Assembly (NCBI GenBank): GCA_964385615.1
Contig: CAYLPP010000001.1
Coordinates: 185,566-249,565 of the forward strand
Source: an uncultured bacterium
GTDB taxonomy: Bacteria > Omnitrophota > Omnitrophia > Omnitrophales > Aquincolibacteriaceae
Reading direction: 5' to 3'
DNA length: 64,000 nt
Part shown: positions 12,801-54,067 of the stretch, piece by piece
Numbering within the stretch: the stretch's first letter is position 1
How the letters are laid out: every line of letters begins with the position of its first letter
Translations under genes and position numbers: made by a program
Notes under the pieces: model-generated
The model's input: the letters and a program-made list of their open reading frames with translations, nothing else
Databases searched by the model: none
What the model was told of the DNA's origin: nothing

Positions 12801-15601
12801 CCCTTCGCGTCGTAATTAAATACAGCGCCATTGCGGCTGACCTGTAAAGCATTTAAAAGTTCCTGGTTTTCCACATAAGAAAAATCCATCTGCTCGTTAT
12901 TCTCATTGACGACACTTGTAATTTTCCCGTTCTGTATAAAAATCCGAGTCCCGTTTTTGAGAACCATCTTCGTCAGACTTCCCTGCTGGGTATATTCAGC
13001 CTCAACAAGGCCTTTTTCAGGAACCGCTGTCGAGGACGCCTGATTTAAAACCAATAAATAAGAGTCTCCGCTTTGAGTTCGTTCATAAAGAAAATGGGCT
13101 CCATTTTCGTCACGAACCTCCCGGAGAATGCCATGCTCGTCGTAACGAACCAACATCCCGCCTGCGGTAAATAAGCGAGTTTCCGAGACCTGGATCTGCG
13201 AAACTTTGACAAATGAAGCATACTGAACTTTGCTGGCGAAAATCTCCCGAACCAAAAATGAGGCTGGCGTAAAATCTTCAACCGTTCCATCCGGACCAAC
13301 TCTTCTGAGAAGCGCGCCTTTCCGGATAATTTCCAGTTTCCCATCTGGATAAACAATGAGGGCATTTTGGATTTCTGAATTTTCATTCATGCTAAAATTA
13401 GTGATTCGAATATCTGAAGCGGTACGGAACTCCGCAAGATGCCCATTAACATAAAAAGCATCCACCCCTCCATCGAAAGTCATTTTAAGGGAAACTGCCT
13501 CATCAAGCGGTGCAGGCACAGGCTGATTAATCGTTTCAATCACAGTACCGTCAGCATCAGTAACTTCGATTGTATTTGAAGTATTCCGCAGATAACGAAC
13601 CTCTTCACCGCTAACATATTTATATTTTTGCACGCTGCCGTCCGGACCGTAAAAAACCTGATCTCCGGCAGGCGTGACTTCTCGAGTTAAAACCCCAGAT
13701 TCATAAAAAAGATGGGTGCCATCCTGGAGAGTTACATCACTGTTCGAAGAATGCGACTGATCGTTAATGGTATCGCTAAATAAAGCGATATTCCCGGCGT
13801 TATCTCGAAGCTGATAAAGCACTTCCTTCTGCCCATTCCCTCCGGTCAAACTCAAAGATTTCACAGAGGCGGCAGCTTCCCAAACCGTCCAAGTTTGTCC
13901 CGCATCCATCGAGAAGCGCATTTGATCAAGCCCTGAAGAGTCTGAACCGGTTAAAGTTAAAGTAACTACAGAACTTACTGTGGATTCAGCCCCTCCATTG
14001 ATCAAAATAGACCCTAGTGGAGAAGTCGTGTCCCTTTTAACCGTAAAGGAATTAGATGAGCCGGTTTTGCCGATAGTATTTTTGGCTTTGACACTGACGC
14101 TGTTATTACTCTCTTTGGTTAAATTAATTATCGCAGCCCAGGTTGTCGAATTGTTAAGAGCAACCACTTCCACATTGTTAATTAAAATAGCCGTGTTGGC
14201 TTCTTTAGTTCCGCTAAGCGTTAAAGTGGTCAGATTCGTTAAAGCGGGAATATTTGAGGTCACGCCAGGTTCTGCGGGAGAATCTACATTAATTCCTTTA
14301 ACTCGAACCCCGACCGAACCTGTCTGAGTAGACGTGTTAGACTGGGTCACGATAAAATTTAGTTGTTTTATTTTCGTTTTATCCAACGCATTCGAAATCG
14401 ACGCGACCGGAACCTGCCAATATCTTTCTGTTGAACTTGAAATATCCGTAAGCGTCCAGATATCCTTGATCCCATTAATATCTACAACCTCAAGCTTAAT
14501 CGAAGTGTTTGAACCCTTAAGACCGAAAGTCAGATTTGTTAGGGCGCTTAAATTTTGAGTCTCTACAGTACTCGTGCTGGCGTCATCAAAAGAGAGAGTA
14601 AAACCTGCGAGATCCCCCGCGTTCAAAACACTATAATCCAACGTGATTTTGTCAGAAGCCCCTGAAATGGAAGTTCCGGCTGATGTTCCTGTAACATAAT
14701 ATGGATGAGGATTTCCAGGTAAGGTAACCACACTTGAAGAGCCAAGCCCCGCGGTGTAAGAAAGGGTCCCGCCCCGCCTTAAAGTGACCTTCTCCTGCTC
14801 TTGCGCTCGATTATAAAGATCTTGCTCTGAAATAAATTGATTCAGTTCTTTCCGAGCTTCAACCTGATTCCGTTCTACCTCTGATTGCCTGACGGCTTCC
14901 GTCAGCTTCGCTAAATACTCTTCGAAAGAAAGCGGCTGCCCATGATTGAGTACCCCCTGATTGTTATAAGCGTACACCCCTTGACGAGTCATAACATATT
15001 CAGCATTTTCCACCGCATCATTAATATCCTGTCCACTCGGCCCCTCCGCAGAATATTCCCCGGGGTGAGTGTGAGATACGAACGAAGCTTTATCCGTGAG
15101 GGCTTTTACCGAAGAAAGCACGCCAATCTCATTTATATTACCGGAAGTAAAAATCACAACTTCGCCATCGAGGACAATGACACCTGTCTCAAAAGATAAA
15201 TTCATTAAGGCCTTCAAATCCTCCGATTGAATATCTTTCACAATGACGGCCGAAGCATACTCCGGGCGGAGCAAATCCAAAGCATCTTCAAATTCATAGC
15301 GTTCATATTCATAAGAAGAAGGTTCCGTAGAAACGGCCTCGGATTTAATCGAAGTGCCTTCGGGAGCATCGGTAGTCGTGAGCCTCAAGGTATCTTGAAG
15401 AAAATCCTGGGAAGTCTGTTGCGCGATAGCGGGGTCGACAACATTCTGTTTAATCTCGTTTGAATCAGCCGCACTTTTTTCAGCCTGCACTGGAACAGGC
15501 TGCGTTAGAAACTCCTGGCCGAACAGCAATTGCGTGGTCGAGAAAGTAATAATGACAGCGGAAGAAACAACTTTTTTAAATGGAAACTTTTTAAGGCGCA
15601 T
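3860..15601 (-). CDS. Giant secreted multidomain protein (3913 aa). Order: signal peptide; JAB/MPN-like motif; Ig-like beta-sandwich region; YD/RHS-repeat block 1; LamG (concanavalin-like) domain; six-blade FG-GAP/VCBS-like Ca-binding propeller; beta-sandwich; YD/RHS-repeat block 2; coiled coil; C39-like peptidase fold; Gly-rich hydrophobic region; unassigned C-terminal domain.
   Basis: The ORF is uninterrupted. The N-terminus MRLKKFPFKKVVSSAVIITFSTTQLLFGQE is a signal peptide, and the start carries an AGAGAGG Shine-Dalgarno 7 nt upstream. YD-repeat motifs include YDEHGILREV, FNYDAKGFLSEI, YSYEFDPQGNEI, YEYDTQGVLLTR and YEYNSEGDPINI. The LamG-like region is LNLDGSQDYLRIPDG...FTIEFWFE...LYLNGQ...GALDEIRISKGTARW. 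Six repeats follow of the form D[IML][ND]GD[GN]xxD[RH]V...W[YWF]VQxNNGxGF. Domain coordinates are given in the findings. Confidence 0.9.
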   Translation of the reverse strand: MRLKKFPFKKVVSSAVIITFSTTQLLFGQEFLTQPVPVQAEKSAADSNEIKQNVVDPAIAQQTSQDFLQDTLRLTTTDAPEGTSIKSEAVSTEPSSYEYERYEFEDALDLLRPEYASAVIVKDIQSEDLKALMNLSFETGVIVLDGEVVIFTSGNINEIGVLSSVKALTDKASFVSHTHPGEYSAEGPSGQDINDAVENAEYVMTRQGVYAYNNQGVLNHGQPLSFEEYLAKLTEAVRQSEVERNQVEARKELNQFISEQDLYNRAQEQEKVTLRRGGTLSYTAGLGSSSVVTLPGNPHPYYVTGTSAGTSISGASDKITLDYSVLNAGDLAGFTLSFDDASTSTVETQNLSALTNLTFGLKGSNTSIKLEVVDINGIKDIWTLTDISSSTERYWQVPVASISNALDKTKIKQLNFIVTQSNTSTQTGSVGVRVKGINVDSPAEPGVTSNIPALTNLTTLTLSGTKEANTAILINNVEVVALNNSTTWAAIINLTKESNNSVSVKAKNTIGKTGSSNSFTVKRDTTSPLGSILINGGAESTVSSVVTLTLTGSDSSGLDQMRFSMDAGQTWTVWEAAASVKSLSLTGGNGQKEVLYQLRDNAGNIALFSDTINDQSHSSNSDVTLQDGTHLFYESGVLTREVTPAGDQVFYGPDGSVQKYKYVSGEEVRYLRNTSNTIEVTDADGTVIETINQPVPAPLDEAVSLKMTFDGGVDAFYVNGHLAEFRTASDIRITNFSMNENSEIQNALIVYPDGKLEIIRKGALLRRVGPDGTVEDFTPASFLVREIFASKVQYASFVKVSQIQVSETRLFTAGGMLVRYDEHGILREVRDENGAHFLYERTQSGDSYLLVLNQASSTAVPEKGLVEAEYTQQGSLTKMVLKNGTRIFIQNGKITSVVNENNEQMDFSYVENQELLNALQVSRNGAVFNYDAKGFLSEIQTSAGTIRRSRIDTNGDGEVTDEDEIQLLLETNGGDKLSDFELDSQGNILRGIIETRNGIKQRIENGILTGFETLDGKLYEMQNTALGRQAVLTEWKLRDGTRVLYGGQTVSGIVFPDGRKLNQIGFNAQKEVETVLEELPDGTRKYFQKGRLVKLITPAGAEIDYDFEGLAFRIILPDQSQETVSYSRDVEGLITDIHFSGEHTQHTFTPDGDLRSLLMDGVNAEIENGEISRIFTRFGEIETPDFDAQGIMSGETVFADGTRQIIENGKLVRSIRSDGTKIYYENGIISAIETQNGHYEFIYGENAAGDLQSARIRLASEAGAPEYPLIPYLLDPKGLLMAPFYKDDSFALAGDANLETGRSRFGEGALNLDGSQDYLRIPDGSSPDFQYGSENFTIEFWFEAESLGSEIQMLWSQYTGGSLNNNISFYISADHKLNAYIEKGGQPFGGGLFSTGAELEAGLWYHAALVRNGDIMTLYLNGQSQSQKTVSGEMPSGNFSISVGAAYNGMVSFFKGALDEIRISKGTARWTSNFTPSVQEYKRDAGTTRLYHFLTDRDHAPADPSLRSALLGRNAFDVLADLQLESEVSVDGQDGSIFLAQFVEDSERGRVYKFSGDYTPVWNNLYTGQSFYNQGYLSRSSVLDLWDNQPALTSDLFDINGDNIADRVWMPSSQNENYWWVQLGNGIGFESPVQWTGVERHYDPNPALTIAGESQGALRFFTGRRPVVLGDLADMNGDGLPDRVLQKSGGSSDWYVQINNGHGFDAPQVWGNVHPLSNWQADTSYASEVRDDEGYPAVQPIVSDLIDMDGDGRADRVIRPYVAPFDHWFFQHNNGNGFDDAALWTGLDLSFDSNVKIAGALSWYRDNNGMIGDISDLVDLNGDNRPDRILLKLKNPADDASGYDWYVQYNNGDGFDGAVLWDSEVRNVTVPDGKTGTALRTFDYSASGKRNIASDLIDMNGDGRVDRVTLDNYSASGVNNTWWVELNTGNGFAEAQAWTGIEGSNSSETALGQDDTHYRSFGAPSYSREPDSVRKVSQLSDLNGDHIPDHVFFKESDGKWYIQYGTGNGFLLAQVTQIEALSAPSVPVPTSRYDYLHISLKAEGNLPESEGAVTVMLGDPEDLANYQEWTVSNLTASWQDFYLPLDTEKSNAGQVQIKFIPSPTASQNTPTLFVDNLTFLILRPDASKDWLDRMLTEENVLKEVHSDRTQTLAQYLGLSQASEESIFDWNAILQAETKIDFDSEGIATGFETFYGSVSKIENGRVVETTMPDGSRIEFSEADIDHPQSMTETVTNADGGVNTFQLSYGRVRSVERPNQSQLSYSYEFDPQGNEITAVYDPETQITERYRDQVLISRQLSNGVLNTFSYNLRGELVSTEISYKGRVYHAFQYQDTVSGNRLVTAEDGTVEEYNPQSQIVAHTTPDGYHYSHTFEHAPQIVTGSREETFTLSDGTVLSFTIPTIELVENPDGDMIHRVDLDSYTSADGTQAFYENGVLKSVERAEGTRITFDRLETQTVENEDAATEEQIRVMDASVYHADGTITKFKDGRPWSVISATGREILLAEDGGELINPNESAVFHQAQAFKVWNEILMPDWQAYQVPDTVAVRYEYDTQGVLLTRQFSEGSIELYENGKIKNIFSEDGEDLVDYEYNSEGDPINIHYGAMRRHLEMSVQQLRSDVAVEHEKALARLADRDQVINQTIEGQYVTARDRLLAIRAQIQSQVEVVSAFLSKGKDAKSAVGSVMDQLASAMNQVNGALESLAQQRADALTQLSAQVHDLSIQIETQTQDSYTQISEETGKAHRSILKQEISPVIYHWYRKILGRDPSQSEYDAVINATDFEAGFNLQFLKSQLENSQEKSGRTAQVNEIKARVTSELLSYLDLPDAEKLIFAQGLGIDTEDTISISSSEADAILQWLQNQSLHFGQSAYLALESLLTGAGLHFDRVDLASRLILIDILTGTLTPLETGDLVLSVYALKQTARHYGLETYALKLDYTALKAMYDDACPDPEQTCDFRMAAHINNKHFVIITKVTNDEVTYIDPGLGPESSPEVQTLSKGEFTQTWINSGIAQSGYGVVLSSRAPPASISNLSVQPLTTVEQMQVRGAFFGFLKKVFRYLVGAYFVALNPINALLVKVVESLRIAVLAHVDQWADLFEDLFTFNFKDIFQKDIWKLIRTGIRLGTESVNAPIQATVIALGKIGIPEKITRTIVAGVKIIVGIVLTIYGGSGIGLIISGVSEIFNQYTHLSPTVSAVIGIGVAIIATVFGGGGFDSLKDSLPTLAASFASVGVMAIGDAIGLDPRISQLISIPISAVAGNVTGNSLGLEGYGNTLSNIIHDTAGGLVSVGASIGLDAIGAPSFATGLVSNFLGAFAAGLAGGAAGGGGPGSSENAGLGLLSRIGDGIKKFGRDVVNAVGNVISFGAKVIEGVGHFTAQGFKKAISAVSSLFSRETQEAIYADETGLKNATVVDNGDTWVWQSGDSRIVYDTETQNIRDSFGVGGEANITGVGIDEAGVSYYQELTSETFLSNGMTLKQTYSDGKLSGWSYGIESTPIITVKGPGDQTPWMGEDGRILRGDVEINPSAVVIKIPDDLDPQRPTLFDNLFLKFNILDGKVAEASVEMRPGTSSATAAPGDTSKYIFGNGFNNEIVPENTPDKLMPSFINDLANKDLIINLAKTLMVPMYETTGLVGNILDWAQDFIFKLTSASDLLKTVALGITPSVLPILANAFGGNDLIEEVRRKLLAFEADPKRGILDKAIAFAHSGFFAPLLGALEKTRDDGSYFDVQTVINYEGPNVNWSDHIDNPNLKRIINVWGTAPNEIIERRADQIPGCNTNGSVSCIDPSKKPVVISDFGPPSNPTDLLSEWSKANFTGSAPDGIENINIKILNARHNDFSYDATAWNDPGNQFEPERIAQEINRKTNLFVRRLYEATLKDQTQSGALNSFLENLRDEGAAVYENGIWEIDTDELPY
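9542..10819 (-). repeat. Six tandem FG-GAP/VCBS-like calcium-binding propeller blades inside giant gene 1
   Basis: The blades are DINGDNIADRVWM...WWVQLGNGIGF; DMNGDGLPDRVLQ...WYVQINNGHGF; DMDGDGRADRVIR...WFFQHNNGNGF; DLNGDNRPDRILL...WYVQYNNGDGF; DMNGDGRVDRVTL...WWVELNTGNGF; DLNGDHIPDHVFF...WYIQYGTGNGF. Confidence 0.7.
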
Positions 15602-24229: not shown

Positions 24230-24472
24230 ATGTCTGAAGATAAAATCACGCTGAATCTGGGAGGCCGGGAAGTGGAAGCGGTTCCCGTGGAAGTCAACCA
24301 GGCCCATGAGGTCTGGAACGACTACCTGCTGGAAGACGGAACGGTGCTCAAGATGAAGCTGATTCTCAAGAAGGTTTTCAAGGTGGCCAATGAAGTGGAC
24401 GCGGAAGGCAACCCGGTCTACGTGATGCAGTCCACTAACGTTTCGACGGTTAACGCACCGAAGAAAAAATGA
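24230..24472 (+). CDS. Hypothetical 80-aa protein
   Basis: Open frame MSEDKITLNLGGREVEAVPVEV... with no recognisable motifs. It overlaps the 5' extension of the dinB ORF on the opposite strand, so its coding status is uncertain. Confidence 0.3.
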   Translation: MSEDKITLNLGGREVEAVPVEVNQAHEVWNDYLLEDGTVLKMKLILKKVFKVANEVDAEGNPVYVMQSTNVSTVNAPKKK

Positions 24473-24696: not shown

Positions 24697-27600
24697 ATGA
24701 AAAAAATTGTAGCCCTTGTCACAGCCATTACCTTCTCTTTTTCCGGCCATTCCACTTATGCCGCGCCTTTCCCCCAGATGGAAACCGCGGCGGATCTTCC
24801 TGCCGGGCAATGGATCAACCCCCTCACGATTTCATTCCCCCCACCCATCGGTGAAATTAAGGAAAAATTCGAGGGGCAAAATAAGCGCTTGGTAGTTCTC
24901 ATCCAGGATGCTCACGCGATCCCTGACGCGCAAAAAAATATCCGTCACTTGATTGAATATTCTGAAAAGAACTATCAAATACCCTTGGTGGCGCTTGAAG
25001 GCTCCGCCTCGGGCATGGACTCCTTTCTTTTTAAAACATTCCCCGATCAAAAGCTTTTGCGGAAAGTACTTGAAGACTATTTTGAAAAAGGAGAGCTCGC
25101 CGGCGGAACCGCCGCCGCCATTTTAAATAACTCCTCAAGCCTTTATCACGGCATTGAAGAATGGTCCTTATACGAAGAAGGTCTCCGAGATTTCCTCAAC
25201 GCCATGGCGCATGAACAGGATATAAATTCGGAGTTAGCGTCTAGAGTTCAAGAGCTGAGGGAGGATAAAGCGAGAACCTATTCAAAAAATCTTCTGGCTC
25301 TGGATCAGGAATTAGAAAAGTTCCGTGAGAACATCGCCGATTTCATCTCAACCCTTAAAGCACTAGCGGCCGTCAAACCTCCTGAAAAAAATTCGCATCT
25401 GGCTTTACTCCTGGAAGAATCCGTTCGGGAAGAGGGAAACGATTCCATCCTAGGTATTGAAATTCAAAAGGCAGCCTCTTTCATACGGCAGAATTTAGAA
25501 AAAACTCACTCCGAAGAATCCCGGAAGGATTTGCGGACATTCCATGAGCAATCCCAAAATTTCAAAACCTCTCATATCTCCGCGCAAGATTTCGCTTTGT
25601 TTTTAAAGGAGCTTTCAAAAAAGCACCATATTCGGGTCCGGGTTTCTTCAAAACTCAATCAACTTACGGTCCGTCAAAAAAGAATAAAAGATATCGAGGG
25701 AACAAAACTCTTTGAGGACTTTGAAAAATACTCGCAGTCAGTAAAAGAAACGCTCTTTAACAGCCTGGAAGAAAGACACCTGGACCAAAGAAGTCATCAA
25801 ATTGATTTGCTCACGCGCCTTCAAAAACTCGAGCTCTCCCCTAAAGATTGGGCGGAAATTAAAAATCTCACGGCCGAAGCCGGCTATTGGGATATTCGCT
25901 TCGACAGGGTAAACGAAGGGCAGGATATCTCGAGCCTACTCTCAAACATGAAACCCAACCTTGACTTCTACCAAAACGCGGAAAAACGCACCCAAAGCTT
26001 TCTAAAACAAACCGTGCGACTAATGCTGAAAGACAAGACCCAGACGGCCGTGCTGGTCGCAGGAGGCTTTCATGCCGAAGGCCTGACAGAGCTTTTCCGC
26101 TCCGAAGGTATTTCCTATGTTCTCGTCATGCCTAAAATAGCCCAGATCCCGGAAAACATTCATTACCGAGAACATATGCGCGGGGAGGTTTCCTGGAACC
26201 GCTATTTTCAGGTTCAAAACGGCCAAGTCAATCTTTACAACGCTTTTGTCCGAGGAACAAGAGACCGGCTTTTGGAACTATCCTCCGAGAACCCAAACGG
26301 AGTACTCAAAGCTTGGAGGGATAACATTATTCTAACTCTTGCGAAGGAAGGACGCGTTAAAGAAAGCCGTCAATATACAAAATTCATCGACGAAATCCGC
26401 TCAGCACCCGGCTCCGCCGGAGGCGGTGATCTGGCTTTGCGGTGGAAAAAAAATATCGATCAATTCATAAAGAATCTCCGCAAGCTCCATGACCAAAACG
26501 AAATCACGGAAGAAAATATCTCAAAATTATTTCAAACTGGCCTAATTCCCCCGGCCCCTGACGCTCCAGTTGTTCTCTCTCCTGGCATTAAACTTTCCGC
26601 AGAACTAATTCCCCAATTGAAGTTTTCCAAAAAAAATCAAAATCGGAACATTTTCCCTAGCACACAGCGGCGCTCCGAAATGCGGCGGACGGGAACTGCT
26701 TCTTCCAGAACAGTTCACGAAAATATTTTAAATGACTTTTTGGAAAATCCTGATCTGAAGAGCACCCTTTTTTACACTCAGGAAGCCAACGCGCTGGATC
26801 GATACCTTCTTGGGCATTCCAAAAAAGAAAAACTGAACTATGTGCGGGTTTCTCTGCGTTCACGCGCCGATCTGGCCCGTTTGATTTCCGATTTAAGAAC
26901 CGCCGCTGACGGTAAAGGTCTAAAAAACGTTCCGGGAGAACTCTGGAACGCGCTGGAAAATGGCGGGATTTTACTGATCGATTACGCAGGCTCCACTCCC
27001 GCTCTCGCTGAAGAATTCAACTCTCTTTTTGACAAAAACGCTTATTTCCAGGAACTCAAGAAAATTTTCCCTGATCTTAAAATCATCGGGGCAATGAAAC
27101 CGGAGCAAAACAACGGATATACGAACGCTCTGCAGTCGCGTTACAATCGGACCTATTTATTCGAGTTCGAAAATCCGCCCCAAAATCCTTTAGCCCCCAT
27201 TTTCGAAATGGTGAACGATGAAGATGAACTTCCCGGCGATGCTGTAGTCATTGATCTCTTTGACGGCGACCCTTTTGACACAAGCCTGCCGCGGCCTCTA
27301 GTCAGCGGAGTCCGTATTGACGCGCAAGGAAGAATGACTCTGGAAGAAGGCGATCTCGCGCGGGCCGTGAAAAGCGGTAAACCTATTGTCATCCGCAGGG
27401 GTAACTTCAAAGAGGGTTCCTCTCTGATGCAGTTTCTGACACGCGCCGCGGTTCTGGGGTTTCAAATAGATGGCGAGCCCTACACTCTTCCTCTGAAAAT
27501 TTATGGAATCCCACATGAATCCCCGGAAAATCAAAAAATCGCCGAAGAAAAGAAGCTGATCACTCCGGAAGAAGCCCAGGAAGGCTCACCCGAAAACGTT

Positions 27601-30600
27601 TGGACTCTCAACAGCACCAACGCGGCTTCTCTTTTTGACAGACTTCAGATTGACAGTGAAGGCCGGATAGTCCCGCTCACGCCCATGCTGAAAATTCCGG
27701 GTGTCCGGATCCGTGTCACAGGCAATCTCCCGCTTTCAATCTGGCACCGGTTGATGGAAAGTCCCGAGATCGTTCAAATTGAAATCGCTCCAAACGTGCA
27801 CGTTCCCGCACCCTACCGTAGCCAACGCTCGCAAAATCTGGTTAAATCATCAAATCAGGCTTCTTCACAAGAACAAACCTGGGAGGAAGCCGCTCCGCAA
27901 AAAGTTATCTATGTTGAAACCAGTGACTTGGGCATAACGGCGGAATCATTAAGGCAGAAATTCGGGGGTACCTCGATTTTTTCCTGGAACGTGAACCCCG
28001 ACGACACCGTAACTCATATCACCGGCGAAGTCGAAGAAATTGAGCCGGGCATTTACCGTCATACGGGAGAAAGCAACGGCACAGAAATTTTAGAAGCTCT
28101 CACGCGTGGCGAAACCGTTTTTATCACCGGTCTGGATTCCAATGCCGCGCTGGCTGAAGATCTCTCCACTTTGAACGCTCCGGAACCCTATCTTGTGATA
28201 AACGGCGAACGGCGGTTTTTGAAAGATTTCCCAGGCCGTATCATCCTCGCCTTCGCGCCTTCCATGAAGCAAAATCGTCCAGCAAAACGAGTTGTTGAAG
28301 ATGGCTCAGGCGAAAAATTAAAGTCGGTTCTTGAGCAGGAATTTAAAGAGGAGCTTACTGAGGAACGCTGGGAACAAATCAACCGGCTCAAAGAGGCTCT
28401 AGCGAAAAATTTTCCTGATGTTTCCCTAAACTGGGGACTCAACCGTATGCGCCTTTTACTGCGTCAGGTCAGGCGTTCCGGAGGAGACTGGGAGAGCGCC
28501 CTTCAGGATGTGATCGGAAATCATTTTCAGGAAGACCGTGAAAAGCGCGCTTTTGTCCGGCTTTTAATCCGCTACGTCTTTAAAATTGAGGGGAAAAACC
28601 GTAAGCCTAACACGGCCGCCTGGGAGCGTCTCCGGGAAATCATGGAAGAAAAAATGATTGAGCCCCTGACGTGGGATCACTTCGGGTGGGAAATCGCGGA
28701 TGCTTTAAGCCTGGATTTGATCCTGAAAATCTGGGATAAAGAAACTCCCAATCTCGCTCAAGGTCCTTCAAGAGCTTTCAGCGCAGTCAAACAAGCCCTT
28801 GACCCGGCCAAACCCGCCGCGGCCCCGAGTCTCGATCTTGAATTTGAAAAAGACCTTGATATTCAAGAACGTCAGCTTGATAAGGTCTATCAAATTCTCA
28901 AAAACGAGCGCGCCGCCATGATTATCGGAATCCCCGGCGTCGGCAAAAGCTACAGCGCCGATCAGCTGGCCAAAAGGCTGGGCTACTCCAAAGAACAAGT
29001 GATTAAATTGACCGTTGGAGCCGGCATAAAAGCCGATGACTTGAAGGGGAACAAAGAGTTCCAAAGAAAAGGTCTGGAGGATTGGGCCAACTCAAAAAAC
29101 GGCGGATTGCTTTTAATAGATGAAGCAAACCTGACAGACCCGGATTTCTGGAATTTTCTGCGAGGTTTTCTCTCCGGTCAGCTGACGGAAAACCACCGGA
29201 TTCTTTTCACGGGAAATCCTTATTCAATGCCCGGCCGTCAGCTTCAGAAACTCCTGCAAGAATTCGTAATCACAGTTCCTTACGAAGAATTTTCTCCGAA
29301 GTTTTTGAGAGAATGGGTAGAAACAAATCTAGACCCGGCGACACCTGAGCGTGAAGCAAGAGCAGAACTCATTTATGAAATTTATACGGCGGTCAGAAAA
29401 GTTCCTGGGATGTCAAGTGAGCTTTCACTCAGAGATTTGAGCGAATTAACCGAACGCGTTAATACTCTCCTTGAGCCTGAAGAACGCACCCGTGAAAATA
29501 TACTATGGACGGCCTGGCGCCAATTCCGCGGAATGCTGACCGTGGAACAGCGGGAAGCCTTACGGCTTTACTTGCACACAACTTTGGGCGGCACGGACCT
29601 AAATTTGAAAGAGAGAGAGGAAACCTTCCCCGAGGGAAAAGATTTCGAGCTTACCGTGATGACCGAAAGCACGGGCCGATTTTTGAACGGCATTGAAGAC
29701 GCGTTAACCATGCGGGATGCCAACATCAGGAAAGCCGCTCAAGCCCGCGGAAAAGGCACTCTTTATGAAAACAAGGGCAAGTCCGGTTTGATCGCGGAAG
29801 GACCTTCCGGACGCCTGAAAAGCGAAGGCATTGTGACTGTTTTGAAAAGCCGCGGTTTTGCGGAAGCCGAAGAAGCGCCGGCAAACTGGCCCGCCAATAA
29901 AAAGTATTACCGTGTGACCGCCTCCCCCGGCTCCGCCCAGCAGTTAATCGAACAGATCCGAAAAGCTCAGCGCGAAGGCGCGGTGGTGGTCATTGATGAA
30001 CTCAATCTTCTGCCCTCGAATTTCCTGGAAGGCATTCTTAATGATGTTCTGACGGGCGCCGCGGAACCCGGTTTTTTTCTTTTTGCAAGCATGAACACCG
30101 CGGACTTCGAAGGCCGGCAAAAATTGTCATCCGCCCTGCAGAACCGCGTGATTTATCAGCGCCTCGAACCTTACTGGCAATCCGAATTAGCCGAAATCGC
30201 CAAGAAGGACCTTTCCCCCGGAAAATCAAAGAAAGCCGCCGAGGGCCTGGCCAACCGGCTCGCACGCTTTCAGGTCTGGCTTCAGAGAAAAATTGAGGCC
30301 CCAAGCCGCCGGCCCACGGTGAGAGAACTGCGAGCCGCGGCACAAGCCATTGCTCAGGGTAAGACCTTTGAAGAAGCTGTCGAATCTGTTTACGGCACAC
30401 GTTTTTTTGAGCTTCTCCGGCCGGACGGTAAAACCGAAATTCCCGCCTCGGTATTTAGCGATTCACCCTATCCGGCAGCCAATGAAGCTGGTCAGGATTT
30501 ACTAAAGACTATTCAGATTTTTGCCGCCATGTTTTTCCCCGAGGAAATGAAATTGCCAAGAATTGAAGTCATTGAAAGCCCAACAAAAGGAGGAAGCAGG

Positions 30601-33600
30601 ATCAGCTTAACCCACACCATTCGAATCAATCGTAACAGGCTATACGGTGAAGATGAGTGGCTTGAAATCCTCCTGCATGAAATCAGTCACGGTCTTTTTA
30701 CTACGGAGGGAGGATTATTAGGCGCAGGCGATGCGATTTGGCAGGATTTGGAAGATATCCGCCATCAACGGGCATTTGAACGTTTATTCCCCAATGGGAA
30801 GTTAGGCAACGTTCCTCTTCAAGATCGATTGGAGCGGCCATCCTCCTCCGAAGAGGAATTCGCGGAAATGATCCGCAAGCGGAACTATTCAGCATTTAAA
30901 AATATTATTTTAAAAACCTCCGTTTCTCCACGCCAGATTTTTCAGCTAATTCTCACAGTCTCCGCTAGAGAGCTTGTAACGGACCAGCAATTACAAGGTT
31001 TTTTAACAGGATTGACAGAAAATGAGCCAGATGTACTAACCCTGCTTCCCGTCAATCCTTTCAGCGAAGCCCTGCCGTTTACTCAAGCGGCCAGAAACTA
31101 TGTGAAGTTTGTCCCCCATAAGGGTGCTTCCCGCTCTGAGATTGAAAGTTTTTTCAAGCAGGCTTTAGCTCAATTGGATGGGATCGAAAACGCGGCCGCC
31201 CGGCTTTCCTCAGACCCTGTTCTAGAAGCTGAAGCGGGCGAAAAAAAGCCGGCTCTGAATCAAAATCCATCGGCTTACCGCCAGCCGCCAGCAAACTTAC
31301 ACAATCTCATCGCTAAAGGCCTTCAGCAGCATATCGAAAAAGCACGTGTGCAACTAAATGAAATAAAAGACGATCTTGAAAGTCCGGAAGGCGTCACAAA
31401 AGAACGGCTTGAAGAAATCCTGGGACAATTAACAAACCCTAACCATCCTTATTCACTTGTACGGGAACTAGAAACACTTAAGGATGACGGATTGACTCAA
31501 TTAAAGCGTGCAGTTCTCGAGATAATCAAAAACCGGGCCCGATCCCAGACTGCCCTTCCCGGCAAGCCCTCTTATTTCAACTCCCTATTGGATTCCCTCA
31601 TAGCCGGGTTGATCGGGCTGGCAACTCGGACCCAGGGGCCAGAAATCGGGCCAGCCAAGAAAAAGCCCCGTCCCCCGGAAGCCGCCCCCCCCTCCCCCCG
31701 GAAAGCACGCTACGCGAGCTCCGGCCATGGTGCACACGGCGACCAAACAAAAGAAGAAGCCCCGGTCATCATTGAAGCAACAGGTCAAGTTGCGGAAAAC
31801 GCAGCGGTGCCTACCGCCGGCCTTAATCTTCCTGCGCGGGATCCCATTCTTCACGAAGTCACCCGCCAAGATGAAAGCGAAGATGCTTTTTTAAATATCC
31901 TTCAAAAATTATTTTTTAATCAAAATCTTCCTGAAGGTGATTTCGGAGCGCGTGGAGAATTTAAAATCGAACAATTTCTTCGAACCCATCAAATATCCCA
32001 ATCCCATTATTATCTGAATCCAAATGAAGCGAACCTGGTTCCGCGCCCTTTCGTATTACGTTTAGAGGGTCCTGGGGACTTCAATGGAAACCCGCTGATT
32101 TTTGAATTTTTTCATTACCTGTTTGAACGGGGATTTTCTGTCACGGTTTACTTCAATGACAAAAGACGGCAGGTCCATATCCGGGATTTTAAAACTCTAA
32201 CGGCCGCTCTCTTCCAGAGCCAGCCAGTCCCGGAAGAGGTCATCCGGCAGGATTACAAAAACCGGGGCGAAACAGCCCCGCCTATTTTTTCAATTTCACA
32301 GCTTCAGGCCATGGTAGAGGGTGAAGTTTATCTCGCCGGCATTTTACGGAAAACCGCGCGCGGGGAAGTCATTGCGGCACCGTCCGGCACTCAAATCCCT
32401 CCCGAAAAATCAGGGGCTGAATCTGCGCCAGCTCAAACACAGGAATCCTCCGAAGTCCGCAAAACACGGATTGAAGCCAGACTGCGGGATTTAATCGATA
32501 GAAAAATGCTTCCGGAATCCACCCAATATAAAGTTTCGATCCGAGATAACCTCGTTGAAGTTAGTTTTTCTGGAAATAAATTTTTTGACGATCCCCAGTG
32601 GAAACTCGCTTTACAGGCCGCTGAAGGCGTTGACAATCTGGATCTGACCGGCACCCACATTGGAGACTTAAGTCCGATCCCGCGCACCGTAAAAAAACTG
32701 GTTCTATCCTCAGCCGCACTCATTTATCACTGGGAACCCCTTAAAAATCTCCCGCTTCTTGAAGAGCTTGATTTAAGTTTTTCCATGTTCAAGGATTTGA
32801 ATTTGCTTCCACCCGGACTAAAAAAATTATACCTGGCAGGAGGAATTAGCATCACAGACGGCTGGGCGCCAATAAAAAACTTATCACAGCTGGAAGTCTT
32901 GCACGTGGGTTCCGCCGATCTTCAGGATGAAGATCTTCATTTCCTTCCCGCCAGCCTCAAAAAACTAAACATAAGAAATAACCCTGAAATCAAGAACTGG
33001 ACTCCGTTGAAATCCTTGACCCAGCTTGAAATATTAGATTTAATGAACAACAAAGCTCCAGAAGAAGATCTCTTTGAACTGTCGCCCGATCAGACAAAGG
33101 GATTTCAACTTATTGGCACTAACGGAAAGTTAAAAGGCCGGTGGCAATTCAAACAAACTCCCGCTGAGGAGCGCCTGGCCCGAATCAAAGATAATATTGA
33201 GAAAATGATCGGCAAAAAAATCTTGGCCCGCGATCAGGTGCCGGTTATTAGACTTTTTAAAGGAAGAGTTCAGGTTCATTTATCTAAGATATTCAAGATC
33301 CCCGAAGCCTGGGAAACTGTACTCAAAGCTTTGGAGGGTGTGGATGAATTAGTTCTGTCAGATACGAACATTATTGATTTAAGTTCAATTCCGGCCAGTG
33401 TCAAAAAATTATCCCTATGGAATTCCAAGAACGTCCCGGATTGGACTCCGCTTAGGGAGTTGCCTCATCTTGAGCAGCTAAGTTTACGCGGAACCCCATT
33501 TTCCGTAACCATCCTACTCGAACCATCGCTTGATCCCGCAAAAGGATTTCAGCTTTTAGATACTCAGGAAGATCCAACCGTTCGCTGGCAATTTAAAAAA

Positions 33601-35178
33601 ACCCCCAGGGAGCGCGGAGATCAAATTAAAGCCAGGCTTAAGAAGCTAGTTGATAGAAAAGTTCTGTCCAGCACCCAGGTCCCGAAAGTCAAATCTTTAA
33701 ACGGGGAATTTGAAGTCTGGGTAGAATTTTATGAACTTTCAGTGACTCCCGAGGTCTGGAAATCAATTTTCGAGACCATAACTGACGTTGACGGCTTATA
33801 CTTTTATAATACGAATATTTCGGATTTAAGCGCGATTCCGGTCGATACAAAAAAACTTCTCTTGATAAACTCTCAAAACATACGGGATTGGACTCCGTTA
33901 AAAAAACTGGCCCATCTTCAAGAGATAAATTTAAACGGAACCCGATTCCCCGAGGGAGATCTCTTTGAACCTTCACCCGATACAACCACGGGATTTCTAA
34001 TACGGGGTACTGACGGAAACTTGAAAGACGGCCGATGGCGGGTTAAAACTCCCCCCCATTTCGAAAAGCAACCAGGAGCTGAAATCCAGTTTGAGCTTTT
34101 TTCCCAACTAAAAATTCTGGAACCCTCTCTTCAGGATCCCGCGAGAGCTTATTCCGCGGCCCTGAATCGTCTGGACCGGGAGGGGTATGGTGACTTCGTG
34201 CGCGCCTTCAAGGAGCAGTATCAAGCCCGGTTTCAAAAACCGGTTCCGGGCAGTACCGGCGAGACTACCGCTTCCGCGCGCAGTGAAGCGCGAACCGCGA
34301 TAGCGGATTCAGCGGCCGAAACCGCGGGAGTGGTTGTCGATAAGTTAAACCCCGAATCAAGAGGAAGGCCGGAACCGGCTGACCTTCGAGAGATTTACAC
34401 ACGTTCACTTTCTGATTTGGATAAATTCGAATTGGATATCCGAGAAGACTTGCGGAAGAAAGTTTCTTCCGCGGGAATCAATTCACTGGAAGCCATTATG
34501 GATTTTTCGGAAAAACTTCTGGCAAAGATGCCGTCGAAGCCCATGACTTTAGCAGTGAATTTCTCTAAATCCGGAAAACGCCCCTCTTTTTTCAACGAAC
34601 TCCTAAGGTCAATTCTTAAAACCAGCAGCGGCGCGGAACTTTTTCTAGACTCTTCCAGTTACCACGAGGTTTCCCGTCAAATGAATCCGCAAACACGCCA
34701 GAAGGCTGCCCTCCGGAAATTAAAACCAGACACTATGACCGCGGGCATTCAAGTAACCGCTTATCAGGATCTGCCGGCCATCCCGATTGCCGTTGATAGA
34801 GCTGCCGCCTCTCTTCACGAAACTTTTCAGGGGCTTTTTCTTGATTCAAATGGAGTGAATAAAGATCAAGACACTCTTTACGCGAGTGAAGTGTTATTTG
34901 CCGCGCTTTTAATTCGCCTGGGATCTATTTCTTTGGAAAAAGGAGATGAACTTAAAAAACGTCTGCAGGGCATCTCTAAGCCGTCAAAAAGGGCTCAAAT
35001 CCGTGCGGATTATTTAAAAGCCGAGCTGATCAAAGCAATTCAAGAAGCGGGCTATAACAAGATTGATCCCGGCGCCTTTGAGTCTAATCAGGGCATCATC
35101 AGCATCCTGGCGAATTCCCTCATAGCTTCAATCACGGCCGAATTCCAGGCCCGGTCCAAATTCGCTGAAGCGGCTTAA
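24697..35178 (+). CDS. Giant multidomain protein (3493 aa). Order: signal-peptide-like N-terminus; TraB/TIKI/GumN-like domain; at least four AAA_5 (MoxR/dynein/midasin-type) ATPase modules; HEISH zinc-peptidase motif; three tandem LRR-containing modules; helical C-terminal region.
   Basis: N-terminus MKKIVALVTAITFSFSGHSTYAAP. TraB-like motifs KRLVVLIQDAHAIPD and TAVLVAGGFHAEGLTELF. One canonical AAA module has Walker A GIPGVGKS at 28927..28950 and Walker B GLLLIDEANL. Three degenerate modules: GGILLIDYAGS...IIGAMKPEQNNGYTNALQSRYNRTY; GETVFITGLDS...IILAFAPSMKQNRP; GLIAEGPSGRLKS...VVVIDELNL...FFLFASMNTADFEGRQKLSSALQNRV. HEISH at 30676..30690. LRR segments such as LDLTGTHIGDLSPIPRTVKKLVLS...LEELDLSFSMFKDLNLLPPGLKKLYL. 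Confidence 0.9.
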   Translation: MKKIVALVTAITFSFSGHSTYAAPFPQMETAADLPAGQWINPLTISFPPPIGEIKEKFEGQNKRLVVLIQDAHAIPDAQKNIRHLIEYSEKNYQIPLVALEGSASGMDSFLFKTFPDQKLLRKVLEDYFEKGELAGGTAAAILNNSSSLYHGIEEWSLYEEGLRDFLNAMAHEQDINSELASRVQELREDKARTYSKNLLALDQELEKFRENIADFISTLKALAAVKPPEKNSHLALLLEESVREEGNDSILGIEIQKAASFIRQNLEKTHSEESRKDLRTFHEQSQNFKTSHISAQDFALFLKELSKKHHIRVRVSSKLNQLTVRQKRIKDIEGTKLFEDFEKYSQSVKETLFNSLEERHLDQRSHQIDLLTRLQKLELSPKDWAEIKNLTAEAGYWDIRFDRVNEGQDISSLLSNMKPNLDFYQNAEKRTQSFLKQTVRLMLKDKTQTAVLVAGGFHAEGLTELFRSEGISYVLVMPKIAQIPENIHYREHMRGEVSWNRYFQVQNGQVNLYNAFVRGTRDRLLELSSENPNGVLKAWRDNIILTLAKEGRVKESRQYTKFIDEIRSAPGSAGGGDLALRWKKNIDQFIKNLRKLHDQNEITEENISKLFQTGLIPPAPDAPVVLSPGIKLSAELIPQLKFSKKNQNRNIFPSTQRRSEMRRTGTASSRTVHENILNDFLENPDLKSTLFYTQEANALDRYLLGHSKKEKLNYVRVSLRSRADLARLISDLRTAADGKGLKNVPGELWNALENGGILLIDYAGSTPALAEEFNSLFDKNAYFQELKKIFPDLKIIGAMKPEQNNGYTNALQSRYNRTYLFEFENPPQNPLAPIFEMVNDEDELPGDAVVIDLFDGDPFDTSLPRPLVSGVRIDAQGRMTLEEGDLARAVKSGKPIVIRRGNFKEGSSLMQFLTRAAVLGFQIDGEPYTLPLKIYGIPHESPENQKIAEEKKLITPEEAQEGSPENVWTLNSTNAASLFDRLQIDSEGRIVPLTPMLKIPGVRIRVTGNLPLSIWHRLMESPEIVQIEIAPNVHVPAPYRSQRSQNLVKSSNQASSQEQTWEEAAPQKVIYVETSDLGITAESLRQKFGGTSIFSWNVNPDDTVTHITGEVEEIEPGIYRHTGESNGTEILEALTRGETVFITGLDSNAALAEDLSTLNAPEPYLVINGERRFLKDFPGRIILAFAPSMKQNRPAKRVVEDGSGEKLKSVLEQEFKEELTEERWEQINRLKEALAKNFPDVSLNWGLNRMRLLLRQVRRSGGDWESALQDVIGNHFQEDREKRAFVRLLIRYVFKIEGKNRKPNTAAWERLREIMEEKMIEPLTWDHFGWEIADALSLDLILKIWDKETPNLAQGPSRAFSAVKQALDPAKPAAAPSLDLEFEKDLDIQERQLDKVYQILKNERAAMIIGIPGVGKSYSADQLAKRLGYSKEQVIKLTVGAGIKADDLKGNKEFQRKGLEDWANSKNGGLLLIDEANLTDPDFWNFLRGFLSGQLTENHRILFTGNPYSMPGRQLQKLLQEFVITVPYEEFSPKFLREWVETNLDPATPEREARAELIYEIYTAVRKVPGMSSELSLRDLSELTERVNTLLEPEERTRENILWTAWRQFRGMLTVEQREALRLYLHTTLGGTDLNLKEREETFPEGKDFELTVMTESTGRFLNGIEDALTMRDANIRKAAQARGKGTLYENKGKSGLIAEGPSGRLKSEGIVTVLKSRGFAEAEEAPANWPANKKYYRVTASPGSAQQLIEQIRKAQREGAVVVIDELNLLPSNFLEGILNDVLTGAAEPGFFLFASMNTADFEGRQKLSSALQNRVIYQRLEPYWQSELAEIAKKDLSPGKSKKAAEGLANRLARFQVWLQRKIEAPSRRPTVRELRAAAQAIAQGKTFEEAVESVYGTRFFELLRPDGKTEIPASVFSDSPYPAANEAGQDLLKTIQIFAAMFFPEEMKLPRIEVIESPTKGGSRISLTHTIRINRNRLYGEDEWLEILLHEISHGLFTTEGGLLGAGDAIWQDLEDIRHQRAFERLFPNGKLGNVPLQDRLERPSSSEEEFAEMIRKRNYSAFKNIILKTSVSPRQIFQLILTVSARELVTDQQLQGFLTGLTENEPDVLTLLPVNPFSEALPFTQAARNYVKFVPHKGASRSEIESFFKQALAQLDGIENAAARLSSDPVLEAEAGEKKPALNQNPSAYRQPPANLHNLIAKGLQQHIEKARVQLNEIKDDLESPEGVTKERLEEILGQLTNPNHPYSLVRELETLKDDGLTQLKRAVLEIIKNRARSQTALPGKPSYFNSLLDSLIAGLIGLATRTQGPEIGPAKKKPRPPEAAPPSPRKARYASSGHGAHGDQTKEEAPVIIEATGQVAENAAVPTAGLNLPARDPILHEVTRQDESEDAFLNILQKLFFNQNLPEGDFGARGEFKIEQFLRTHQISQSHYYLNPNEANLVPRPFVLRLEGPGDFNGNPLIFEFFHYLFERGFSVTVYFNDKRRQVHIRDFKTLTAALFQSQPVPEEVIRQDYKNRGETAPPIFSISQLQAMVEGEVYLAGILRKTARGEVIAAPSGTQIPPEKSGAESAPAQTQESSEVRKTRIEARLRDLIDRKMLPESTQYKVSIRDNLVEVSFSGNKFFDDPQWKLALQAAEGVDNLDLTGTHIGDLSPIPRTVKKLVLSSAALIYHWEPLKNLPLLEELDLSFSMFKDLNLLPPGLKKLYLAGGISITDGWAPIKNLSQLEVLHVGSADLQDEDLHFLPASLKKLNIRNNPEIKNWTPLKSLTQLEILDLMNNKAPEEDLFELSPDQTKGFQLIGTNGKLKGRWQFKQTPAEERLARIKDNIEKMIGKKILARDQVPVIRLFKGRVQVHLSKIFKIPEAWETVLKALEGVDELVLSDTNIIDLSSIPASVKKLSLWNSKNVPDWTPLRELPHLEQLSLRGTPFSVTILLEPSLDPAKGFQLLDTQEDPTVRWQFKKTPRERGDQIKARLKKLVDRKVLSSTQVPKVKSLNGEFEVWVEFYELSVTPEVWKSIFETITDVDGLYFYNTNISDLSAIPVDTKKLLLINSQNIRDWTPLKKLAHLQEINLNGTRFPEGDLFEPSPDTTTGFLIRGTDGNLKDGRWRVKTPPHFEKQPGAEIQFELFSQLKILEPSLQDPARAYSAALNRLDREGYGDFVRAFKEQYQARFQKPVPGSTGETTASARSEARTAIADSAAETAGVVVDKLNPESRGRPEPADLREIYTRSLSDLDKFELDIREDLRKKVSSAGINSLEAIMDFSEKLLAKMPSKPMTLAVNFSKSGKRPSFFNELLRSILKTSSGAELFLDSSSYHEVSRQMNPQTRQKAALRKLKPDTMTAGIQVTAYQDLPAIPIAVDRAAASLHETFQGLFLDSNGVNKDQDTLYASEVLFAALLIRLGSISLEKGDELKKRLQGISKPSKRAQIRADYLKAELIKAIQEAGYNKIDPGAFESNQGIISILANSLIASITAEFQARSKFAEAA
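32464..34056 (+). repeat. Three tandem intragenic modules, each with an N-terminal helix, LRRs and a conserved KGFQL..G.W.FK.TP tail, inside giant gene 2
   Basis: The modules begin ARLRDLIDRKMLPESTQYKVS..., ARIKDNIEKMIGKKILARDQVPV... and ARLKKLVDRKVLSSTQVPKVKS.... Each ends with ...(F/L)E(L/P)SPD..KGFQLIGTNGKLKGRWQFKQTP, ...PAKGFQLLDTQEDPTVRWQFKKTP or ...TTGFLIRGTDGNLKDGRWRVKTPP. DNA-level similarity is visible between the copies. Confidence 0.7.
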
Positions 35179-46687: not shown

Positions 46688-46761
46688 TGGAGCGAGTGGA
46701 GGGAATCGAACCCTCGTAATTGCCTTGGCAAGGCAACGCATTACCACTATGCTACACTCGC
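46688..46761 (-). tRNA. tRNA-Gly (GCC), CCA encoded
   Basis: Reverse complement is GCGAGTGTAGCATAGTGGTAATGCGTTGCCTTGCCAAGGCAATTACGAGGGTTCGATTCCCTCCACTCGCTCCA. The anticodon loop is TTGCCAA. Confidence 0.85.
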
Positions 46762-46970
46762 TTGTCTTTTTGAGGACCTATTCAATCCTGAAAGCCATAT
46801 AGTGTAGGAAAAGAGGTCCTTTTTGTCAACGGATTCCCTGCTTCCCAAGGGGTTTATTTTAAAGAAGTTAGAACAAGACCGCAGTTTGAAGCGTTTCCGG
46901 CGGAAACTGACGTTCAGCTTGTAAAGAAATGCGGGATCAGGTAGAATCGCCTTCCTTTCGCACCCTTTAA

Positions 46971-47046
46971 GCGCCGATAGCTCAGCTGGTAGAGCAAGTG
47001 ACTCTTAATCACTGGGTCGTAGGTTCGATCCCTACTCGGCGCACCA
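46971..47046 (+). tRNA. tRNA-Lys (CTT), CCA encoded
   Basis: GCGCCGATAGCTCAGCTGGTAGAGCAAGTGACTCTTAATCACTGGGTCGTAGGTTCGATCCCTACTCGGCGCACCA. Confidence 0.85.
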
Positions 47047-47121
47047 AACCTCATGGTTTGACACTTCGTCGTCGCGGCTACGGAAAGCCGCGTACGGCGA
47101 AGGCTTCGTCCGGCAAACCAG

Positions 47122-47203
47122 CTCCTGTTCCGCGGCTATGGCGAAATTGGCAGACGCGCCAGACTTAGGATCTGGTCCCGTAAGGGGTGGGGGTTCAACT
47201 CCC
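47122..47203 (+). tRNA. tRNA-Leu (TAG), long variable arm
   Basis: GCGGCTATGGCGAAATTGGCAGACGCGCCAGACTTAGGATCTGGTCCCGTAAGGGGTGGGGGTTCAACTCCCTCTAGCCGCA. The anticodon loop is CTTAGGA. The exact ends are approximate. Confidence 0.75.
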
Positions 47204-47234
47204 TCTAGCCGCACTAAATCCAATGATTTAGTAC

Positions 47235-53995: not shown

Positions 53996-54067
53996 TGGCC
54001 GGGGCGTGGATTGAACACGCGACGCAGGGATTTTCAGTCCCTCGCTCTACCACTGAGCTACCCGGCC
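53996..54067 (-). tRNA. tRNA-Phe (GAA), no encoded CCA
   Basis: Reverse complement is GGCCGGGTAGCTCAGTGGTAGAGCGAGGGACTGAAAATCCCTGCGTCGCGTGTTCAATCCACGCCCCGGCCA. Confidence 0.85.

Follow-up and report, generated by a model that had tools for sequence, protein, structure and literature searches.

Most prokaryotic AAA+ proteins carry a single module, as reviews of the superfamily state, and the multimodule giants midasin and dynein are held to be eukaryotic inventions that arose by six-fold concatenation of a single-module MoxR-like ATPase (PMC3495828, PMC3791482). Can such arrays be found in bacteria as well? We analyzed a stretch of 64,000 nucleotides (hereafter, the window) from an uncultured bacterium of the Omnitrophota (contig CAYLPP010000001.1, positions 185,566 to 249,565), in which an uninterrupted open reading frame (ORF) of 3,493 amino acids (aa) plus stop codon occupies positions 24697..35178 on the plus strand, as established from the ORF list and the translation. 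An earlier reading of the letters alone, made without database searches (the sequence-only reading), had described its product as a midasin-like chain of AAA modules combined with a TraB/TIKI-like domain, an HExxH motif and three leucine-rich repeat (LRR) modules; the ORF is present, and all the features listed for it lie where that reading had placed them. In sequence and in predicted structure, the AAA block of this protein is similar to the rings of concatenated AAA modules in midasin and dynein.

Five AAA_5-derived modules, here called D1, D2, D4, A and B, were recognized in the one chain by Pfam, HMMER and hhalign. The whole protein was scanned with Pfam and then scanned segment by segment, with 13 orthologous segments also scanned singly; relations between modules were taken from hhalign profile-profile comparison on alignments free of paralogous modules. 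The sequence-only reading had named one canonical AAA module (28879..29286) and three degenerate ones (about 26914..27186, 28084..28296 and 29779..30156), which correspond to aa 1395-1530, 740-830, 1130-1200 and 1695-1820, respectively. That reading had left room for profile searches to support just one AAA domain; instead, all four hold, the three degenerate ones falling on units D1, D4 and AAA-B with backing from Pfam and hhalign, and a fifth, D2, is added. The order D1-D2-(D3)-D4-A-B is kept in ∼150 representative proteins and is the dominant architecture. A six-module layout, D1-D2-D4-A-A-B, was seemingly present in 25 representatives and turned out to be a single A module split by an insertion.

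The two best-preserved modules lie at the end of the array. AAA-A (28864..29631, aa 1390-1645; all features of this gene are on the plus strand) is an intact AAA_5 module with a helical lid, assigned from Pfam and motif conservation. It matches Pfam AAA_5 (PF07728) at aa 1408-1488 with 37.6 bits against a cutoff of 22, shows a weak match to AAA_lid_7 (the midasin AAA lid), and carries the Walker A motif GIPGVGKS (aa 1411-1418), the Walker B pair D1475-E1476, N1507, R1514, R1579 and the FTGNP stretch, all in keeping with the canonical module that had been claimed. AAA-B (29665..30393, aa 1657-1899), a second AAA_5 module with lid, was assigned from Pfam, a profile match to the PDB and motif conservation. 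Its segment-wise Pfam AAA_5 match covers aa 1754-1817 (E 5e-4), and its motifs are GPSGRLKS (aa 1702-1709), D1767-E1768, N1800, R1817 and a midasin-like ...MNTADFEGRQKLSSALQNRV stretch; for this last module the sequence-only reading had noted an ATMNP-like signature. Among representatives, the Walker A lysine is conserved in 91/91 for AAA-A and 98/98 for AAA-B, and the Walker B glutamate, the sensor-1 asparagine and the arginine (R1514 or R1817) each in 127/127 for AAA-A and 106/106 for AAA-B. The family consensus of AAA-B is unusual, reading GRGKD at Walker A and SEMN at sensor 1. Only modules A and B keep nucleotide-site residues; D1, D2 and D4 are degenerate.

D1 (26794..27186, aa 700-830) is without Walker A and has two strands, ILLID and KIIGA, that look like Walker B and sensor 1; in the segment-wise scan it matches Pfam AAA_5 weakly at aa 729-815 (E 0.13, profile positions 42-138), and AAA_5 is the sole family that recurs, again weakly, in 5 of the 13 orthologous segments. 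By hhalign, D1 is related to B with a probability of 92.3% and to D4 with 87.3%, and the D4 profile recovers D1 directly by HMMER. D2 (27274..27531, aa 860-945), the partial module absent from the earlier list, rests on hhalign (D2-D4, 91.8%, E 7.6e-7); in the profile search it pairs with the part of midasin AAA1 that follows Walker A, this stretch alone not being significant. Pfam does not match D2, and the D2 plus D3 region gave no recurrent Pfam family among the orthologous segments. D4 (27889..28341, aa 1065-1215) is a full-length AAA_5-type module without a P-loop, defined by Pfam and by a predicted alpha/beta core: AAA_5 is found in 9 of the 13 orthologous segments (best E 4.4e-6), and single members also match the Dynein_heavy D6 and AAA_9 models. 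The hhalign probability is 98.7% for A-B but just 18% for D4-A, though the latter alignment is collinear. Between D2 and D4 lies D3 (27574..27846, aa 960-1050), which by predicted secondary structure is a small beta-rich domain with a conserved W..H...H pattern, and between D4 and AAA-A the model shows, by secondary structure and pLDDT, a helical region (28360..28791, aa 1222-1365) and, after it, a linker of low confidence up to aa 1388.

To which solved proteins is this block most similar? When a profile of the block was compared with all PDB sequences, Schizosaccharomyces pombe midasin was matched in nine stretches with E 1.8e-26 (95 bits), the next protein being McrB at 3.7e-4; single-sequence PDB searches with the block were unproductive. 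In the strongest single stretch, AAA-B aligns with Mdn1 residues 898-1094, i.e., midasin AAA3 (independent E value, 6e-8), and AAA-A pairs with Mdn1 residues 1533-1660. We then modeled aa 700-1899 with AlphaFold2 from 13 sequences; the model has a predicted local distance difference test score (pLDDT) of 76.3 and a predicted template modeling score of 0.67, and its secondary structure sets the units D1, D2, D3, D4, helical region, AAA-A plus lid and AAA-B plus lid. Structural matches to this model (score, root mean square deviation [RMSD] and length) were led by dynein 9mfv_A (19.7, 10.6 Å, 753 residues) and 7mgm_A (17.8, 6.3 Å, 751), followed by the single modules of CbbQ (14.6, 2.4 Å, 219), NorQ (14.1, 2.5 Å, 219) and McrB (13.8, 3.2 Å, 202) and by midasin 6or5 (13.5, 24.5 Å, 595) and 5jcs (13.1, 4.4 Å, 642). 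The motor regions of dynein and midasin thus align with the predicted block over 600-760 residues, and because these alignments span multiple modules, several modules superpose together. With Foldseek, all of the top 50 matches were dynein (E ∼1e-21, template modeling [TM] scores of 0.41-0.44), the best being the arc from AAA2 to AAA4.

The likeness has clear limits. Midasin (Rea1/Mdn1) has six modules, whereas five are recognizable here; the bacterial protein has no MIDAS/VWA domain and no D/E-rich region, and it bears a signal-peptide-like N terminus and, absent from midasin, HExxH, LRR and TIKI-fold parts. The dynein heavy-chain motor carries a coiled-coil stalk with a microtubule-binding insertion between AAA4 and AAA5, whereas neither is predicted in our block, and its sequence identity to the block is just 12-15%. 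In the MoxR class (CbbQ, NorQ, RavA) and in McrB, each chain contributes a single AAA module to a homohexamer that usually has a VWA partner, whereas here one chain bears the concatenated modules and no VWA partner was found. The midasin/dynein-type reading of the array is upheld by the midasin match in the PDB, by the hhalign relations linking five modules and by the structural alignment. Contrary to the rarity once attributed to it, the block is not especially rare in metagenomes, where 1,134 representative clusters match it at E ≤ 1e-3.

These clusters come from an exhaustive comparison of aa 700-1899 with 1.84 billion representatives, in which 97 of the 1,134 proteins reached E ≤ 1e-30. 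About 45 matches span all 1,200 residues, and in many the similarity runs on to ∼aa 2290 through an HExxH region. The conserved cassette of our protein comprises aa 700-2290, the AAA array with the directly following HExxH domain. A scan of one genome per species found the full block in Omnitrophota, Elusimicrobiota, metagenome-assembled genomes labeled Planctomycetales, FCPU426, Marinamargulisbacteria and Gammaproteobacteria. Outside the Omnitrophota family described below, cassette proteins are mostly without its N-terminal module, and those of Elusimicrobiota and Marinamargulisbacteria carry the AAA-HExxH unit without flanking modules. The chromosome of Endozoicomonas sp. ALC020 (NZ_CP184830.1) carries, at ∼0.9-1.28 Mb, >25 paralogous cassette genes (loci L024-L058), apparently a large and undescribed gene expansion in an animal symbiont. 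Two adjacent genes of this set (L024) encode proteins of 2,341 and 2,573 aa, both of which match AAA_5 in full and contain a Transglut_core domain. One Endozoicomonas protein viewed in detail keeps D2-D4, A and B and has a transglutaminase-core domain, no HExxH motif and no signal peptide; this exchange of HExxH for a transglutaminase-like domain fits the MoxR-peptidase partnership proposed earlier (PMC3495828).

In our protein, the HExxH domain (30394..31236, aa 1900-2180; motif conservation) follows the array directly, and in most full-length homologues it likewise adjoins the AAA block without a break. The HEISH motif pointed out by the sequence-only reading is at aa 1994-1998 (nucleotides 30676-30690), with a conserved QDLEDxR ∼20 residues downstream; all 10 homologues compared keep H, E and H of the motif, D2020 and R2022. 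The succession of an AAA+ ATPase and an HExxH domain in one chain is reminiscent of FtsH-type zinc proteases. FtsH, however, is a homohexamer with one classic-clade AAA module and an M41 peptidase domain, anchored in the membrane of the producer, whereas the domain here has no M41 match.

Beyond the cassette, a helical, low-complexity, Pro-rich linker without family matches (31237..31878, aa 2181-2394) leads to a conserved domain (31879..32496, aa 2395-2600) that contains a ...FLFERGFxVTVY... stretch, is common to 14 cassette homologues and has no Pfam or PDB match. The three LRR-bearing modules that had been predicted lie at 32539..34071 (aa 2615-3125); Pfam LRR_4 matches them in 4 stretches with 58.5 bits, and the three units share 32-38% pairwise identity. 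The chain closes with a C-module (34321..35175, aa 3209-3493), defined by profile, for which no PDB or Pfam match was found.

At the N terminus, a signal-peptide-like segment (24697..24765, aa 1-23) consists of MKK, a hydrophobic core and a putative TYA/A cleavage site; 61 of the 64 family members that begin with Met have one, and beyond it the protein has no hydrophobic or transmembrane (TM)-like segment. The N-module proper (24766..26631, aa 24-645), assigned by fold and motif, has as its core the parallel beta-sheet fold of the TIKI/TraB/EreA/ChaN superfamily, which includes the MARTX effector RRSP and HopBA1, and a helical insertion of ∼290 aa splits this core. Its signature, D71-x-H73, E101, R431 and H459, is conserved in 96-98 of ∼99 homologues, and the spacing (acid-x-His, 28 residues, Glu; Arg, 28 residues, His) matches that of the catalytic residues E3900-x-H3902, E3930, R4001 and H4030 of RRSP (PMC6254334). 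The module differs from its superfamily by an Asp in place of the first Glu, by the helical insertion and by having no match to Pfam TraB_PrgY_gumN at E ≤ 10; PDB searches with it gave nothing useful with the single sequence and nothing with the profile. The TraB/TIKI-like assignment is thus borne out by fold and invariant motif, though not by Pfam. In several homologues of the N-module (aa 26-645), short repeated low-complexity insertions (GAPLAGARSEGQ-like or QETRDKGQE-like) occur at different loops within the same protein.

What, then, surrounds the cassette in related proteins? The homologue search with the 3,493-aa protein returned 212 proteins, of which 120 are listed and supply the family statistics given here. 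They are 1,900-6,100 aa long, and the named ones are almost all from Omnitrophota/Omnitrophica. In 118 of 119 members the similarity is restricted to the first ∼640 aa, always at the member's own N terminus, and the last ∼285 aa, the C-module, were found by profile at the extreme C terminus in 19 of the 120; the C-module always stands at the protein's end and closes with [A/S]-A-COOH, invariant in 14 aligned sequences (...AEAA in our protein; ...RKAA, QKAA or GRSA in others). This terminal dipeptide might direct sorting, processing or degradation. The central part of our protein is shared, among family homologues, only by P0002 and P0013. Elsewhere the ends enclose unrelated domains of typically cytoplasmic enzymes: methyltransferases, PEP-utilising domains, ABC1 kinase with M48 peptidase, SNF2 and SecA helicase domains, WD40, HATPase, FHA, J domains and others. 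The AAA-HExxH unit is one of these highly variable cargoes between constant N- and C-modules. Family members also cluster in genomes. On one Omnitrophota contig (L064, 1..31415), three N-module giants of ∼4,100, 3,804 and ∼4,700 aa stand in a row, with a gene for an M1 aminopeptidase between two of them.

Two described systems invite comparison with this build. MARTX toxins also have constant N- and C-terminal regions around a variable enzyme mosaic, and their cargo is delivered into another cell; the analogy is functional only, and delivery by the present family is putative. Neither RTX repeats nor a cysteine protease domain were found here by Pfam, and the signal is of Sec type, whereas MARTX toxins use a type I secretion signal. 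Archaeovorin-type giant proteins share with our family the Omnitrophota origin, the multienzyme mosaic and the occurrence of AAA_5 among the domains (bioRxiv 10.1101/2023.11.21.568195), but they exceed 30,000 aa and have many TM helices, whereas the members here reach 1,900-6,100 aa and our protein is without TM segments. The literature on giant Omnitrophota proteins targets those of >10,000-30,000 aa, mentions AAA_5 among many domains and describes N-terminal regions without identifiable domains; in the accessible part of it we found no mention of the constant N- and C-modules.

On the basis of these results, we propose, with a confidence just short of even, that the gene product is a Sec-exported, effector-like giant that serves as an ATP-driven protein remodeller or protease effector. 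The degenerate modules D1, D2 and D4 would make up the rest of a pseudo-ring, or of an arc of such a ring, in which ATP turnover in A, and perhaps in B, could remodel or unfold a target protein. The three LRR modules may hold this target and the HExxH domain may cleave it, which would unite the logic of FtsH, AAA+ plus zincin, in a single polypeptide; linkage of MoxR ATPases with peptidases has been proposed before (PMC3495828). The TIKI-fold N-module and the C-module, as constant ends of the family, would probably serve export, processing or delivery. Because the cassette needs ATP, Sec export would be followed by action inside another cell, be it host or prey, and a predatory or host-dependent lifestyle has been proposed for Omnitrophota (PMC10066038). 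The signal-like N termini (61/64), the cytoplasmic type of the enzyme cargo and the clustering in genomes support such an exported effector.

Several observations weigh against this proposal or parts of it. TM-scores of just 0.41-0.44, large RMSD values and a model that rests on 13 sequences at a pLDDT of 76 are no proof of a closed ring. Walker A is missing from D1, D2 and D4, and the Walker, sensor and arginine residues are present only in A and B; in AAA-B of our protein, the Walker A glycine found in 95 of 98 homologues is replaced by Leu. D3 is related to none of the other modules by hhalign and has no Pfam match. None of the family matches of the HExxH domain is significant, the sub-threshold ones being to SprT-like proteins (E 0.02) and, across HExxH...E, to M4 elastases (E 0.5). 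Nothing beyond the Sec signal was identified that could secrete or translocate the protein, and ATP is available only in the cytoplasm. The genes adjoining the giant ORF in the window are unrelated housekeeping genes. A VWA/MIDAS domain or partner, for which the sequence-only reading had suggested a survey, was sought in the protein, the window and the neighbors of six other loci, and none was found; we therefore call the protein midasin-like and not a midasin orthologue. At one locus (L009), a BatD gene at 4146..6041 lies ∼2 kb upstream of the cassette gene, the sole hint of a MoxR/VWA context and unseen in other loci. BatD is a member of the Bat operon, in which MoxR and VWA genes are also found.

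How do other explanations fare? The protein might be a puller of the midasin type that performs no proteolysis, with the AAA array pulling a target held by the LRRs, these taking the role of MIDAS, and with HExxH being structural or self-processing. Midasin is indeed the closest solved relative in sequence, the layout of AAA array, long helical or low-complexity linker and distal binding domain is midasin-like, and the HExxH domain gave no significant peptidase-family match, but the invariant H, E and H with the acidic residues downstream argue for a working metal site, and the Endozoicomonas relatives carry a different peptidase-type domain in its stead; we regard a nonproteolytic puller as unlikely. 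Action in or on the producer cell, as membrane-tethered quality control or as a MoxR-type NTP-dependent conflict system with the N-terminal segment as its anchor, would accord with the usual place of work of MoxR-class ATPases, for which a part in degradation or conflict systems close to the membrane, together with peptidases or VWA proteins, has been predicted (PMC3495828, PMC7159879), and weak PADLOC matches to AAA-containing candidates point the same way. These matches are to generic AAA domains at low scores (22 and 17 bits), however, and the search for anti-phage defense systems with PADLOC gave no significant component match. Moreover, with a positive-inside N-terminal segment, most of the chain would lie outside the cytoplasm, it has no TM segment to lead it back, and neither a VWA partner nor an operon was found, so that a role in the producer seems to us improbable.

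Another thought is that the protein coats the cell or serves as a surface adhesin, with the LRRs for attachment and the AAA-derived modules as a vestigial scaffold. Such roles have been suggested for giant ORFs of Omnitrophota (PMC10066038; bioRxiv 10.1101/2023.11.21.568195), and three of the five modules are degenerate. Nevertheless, essentially every representative has kept the Walker A lysine, Walker B glutamate, sensor-1 asparagine and arginine of A and B, which indicates selection for nucleotide chemistry, and we consider an adhesin quite improbable. Finally, since the sequence apparently derives from a metagenome-type assembly and no gene record matched its product exactly, the ORF might be an assembly chimera or a miscall that joins unrelated genes. 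This is barely conceivable, as the 10.5-kb frame is uninterrupted, the independent protein P0002 (3,624 aa) is collinear with ours over all regions, from the N-module through cassette and LRR to the C-module in the same order, and the protein collection contains an identical sequence that stems from an NCBI contig of 383,863 bp.

With regard to novelty, literature searches for bacterial midasin-like or dynein-like proteins gave nothing relevant, and work in subscription journals may escape such searches. As far as could be found, the layout of a five-module AAA chain with protease-like and target-binding parts is undescribed in bacteria, as the sequence-only reading had supposed of its combination of domains; it is nevertheless no one-off, given an Omnitrophota family with constant ends and an AAA cassette that crosses phyla. 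Our protein belongs to a mostly Omnitrophota family built on one principle, in which the TIKI-fold N-module and the C-module, with its fixed Ala-Ala end, stay constant and the enzyme cargo between them is interchangeable, and the same AAA cassette in the strongly expanded Endozoicomonas gene family provides a link across symbionts. Since a conserved bacterial family of five-module AAA_5 proteins has midasin as its best solved match, the question of the origin of midasin and dynein becomes testable. One bold and, in our judgment, doubtful answer is that bacteria own a lineage of single-chain midasin/dynein-type AAA_5 arrays, with the fixed order D1-D2-D4-A-B and a division of labor between active and degenerate modules, which would be used as an exported ATP-driven effector and would be either a sister or precursor of the eukaryotic ancestor or the product of an ancient transfer from eukaryotes to host-associated bacteria.

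Within the window, the giant gene is solitary. Genes for a DinB-type polymerase, an SF1 helicase and an ECF sigma factor lie upstream in divergent orientation, and proS lies downstream in convergent orientation; no promoter or terminator consensus was found upstream of the giant gene. Just 5' of it, an 80-aa ORF with a Lys-rich tail (24230..24472, plus strand), a putative gene, shares sequence with the region annotated as the start of the divergent dinB-like ORF. A second giant ORF of 3,913 aa (3860..15601, minus strand) with Laminin_G_3, FG-GAP, RHS-repeat and Peptidase_C39 domains was considered as a relative of the 3,493-aa ORF and proved to be unrelated. An Rfam scan of the window gave no rRNA or other match apart from four tRNA genes, which are located at 46691..47213 and 53996..54067, three of them in a cluster.

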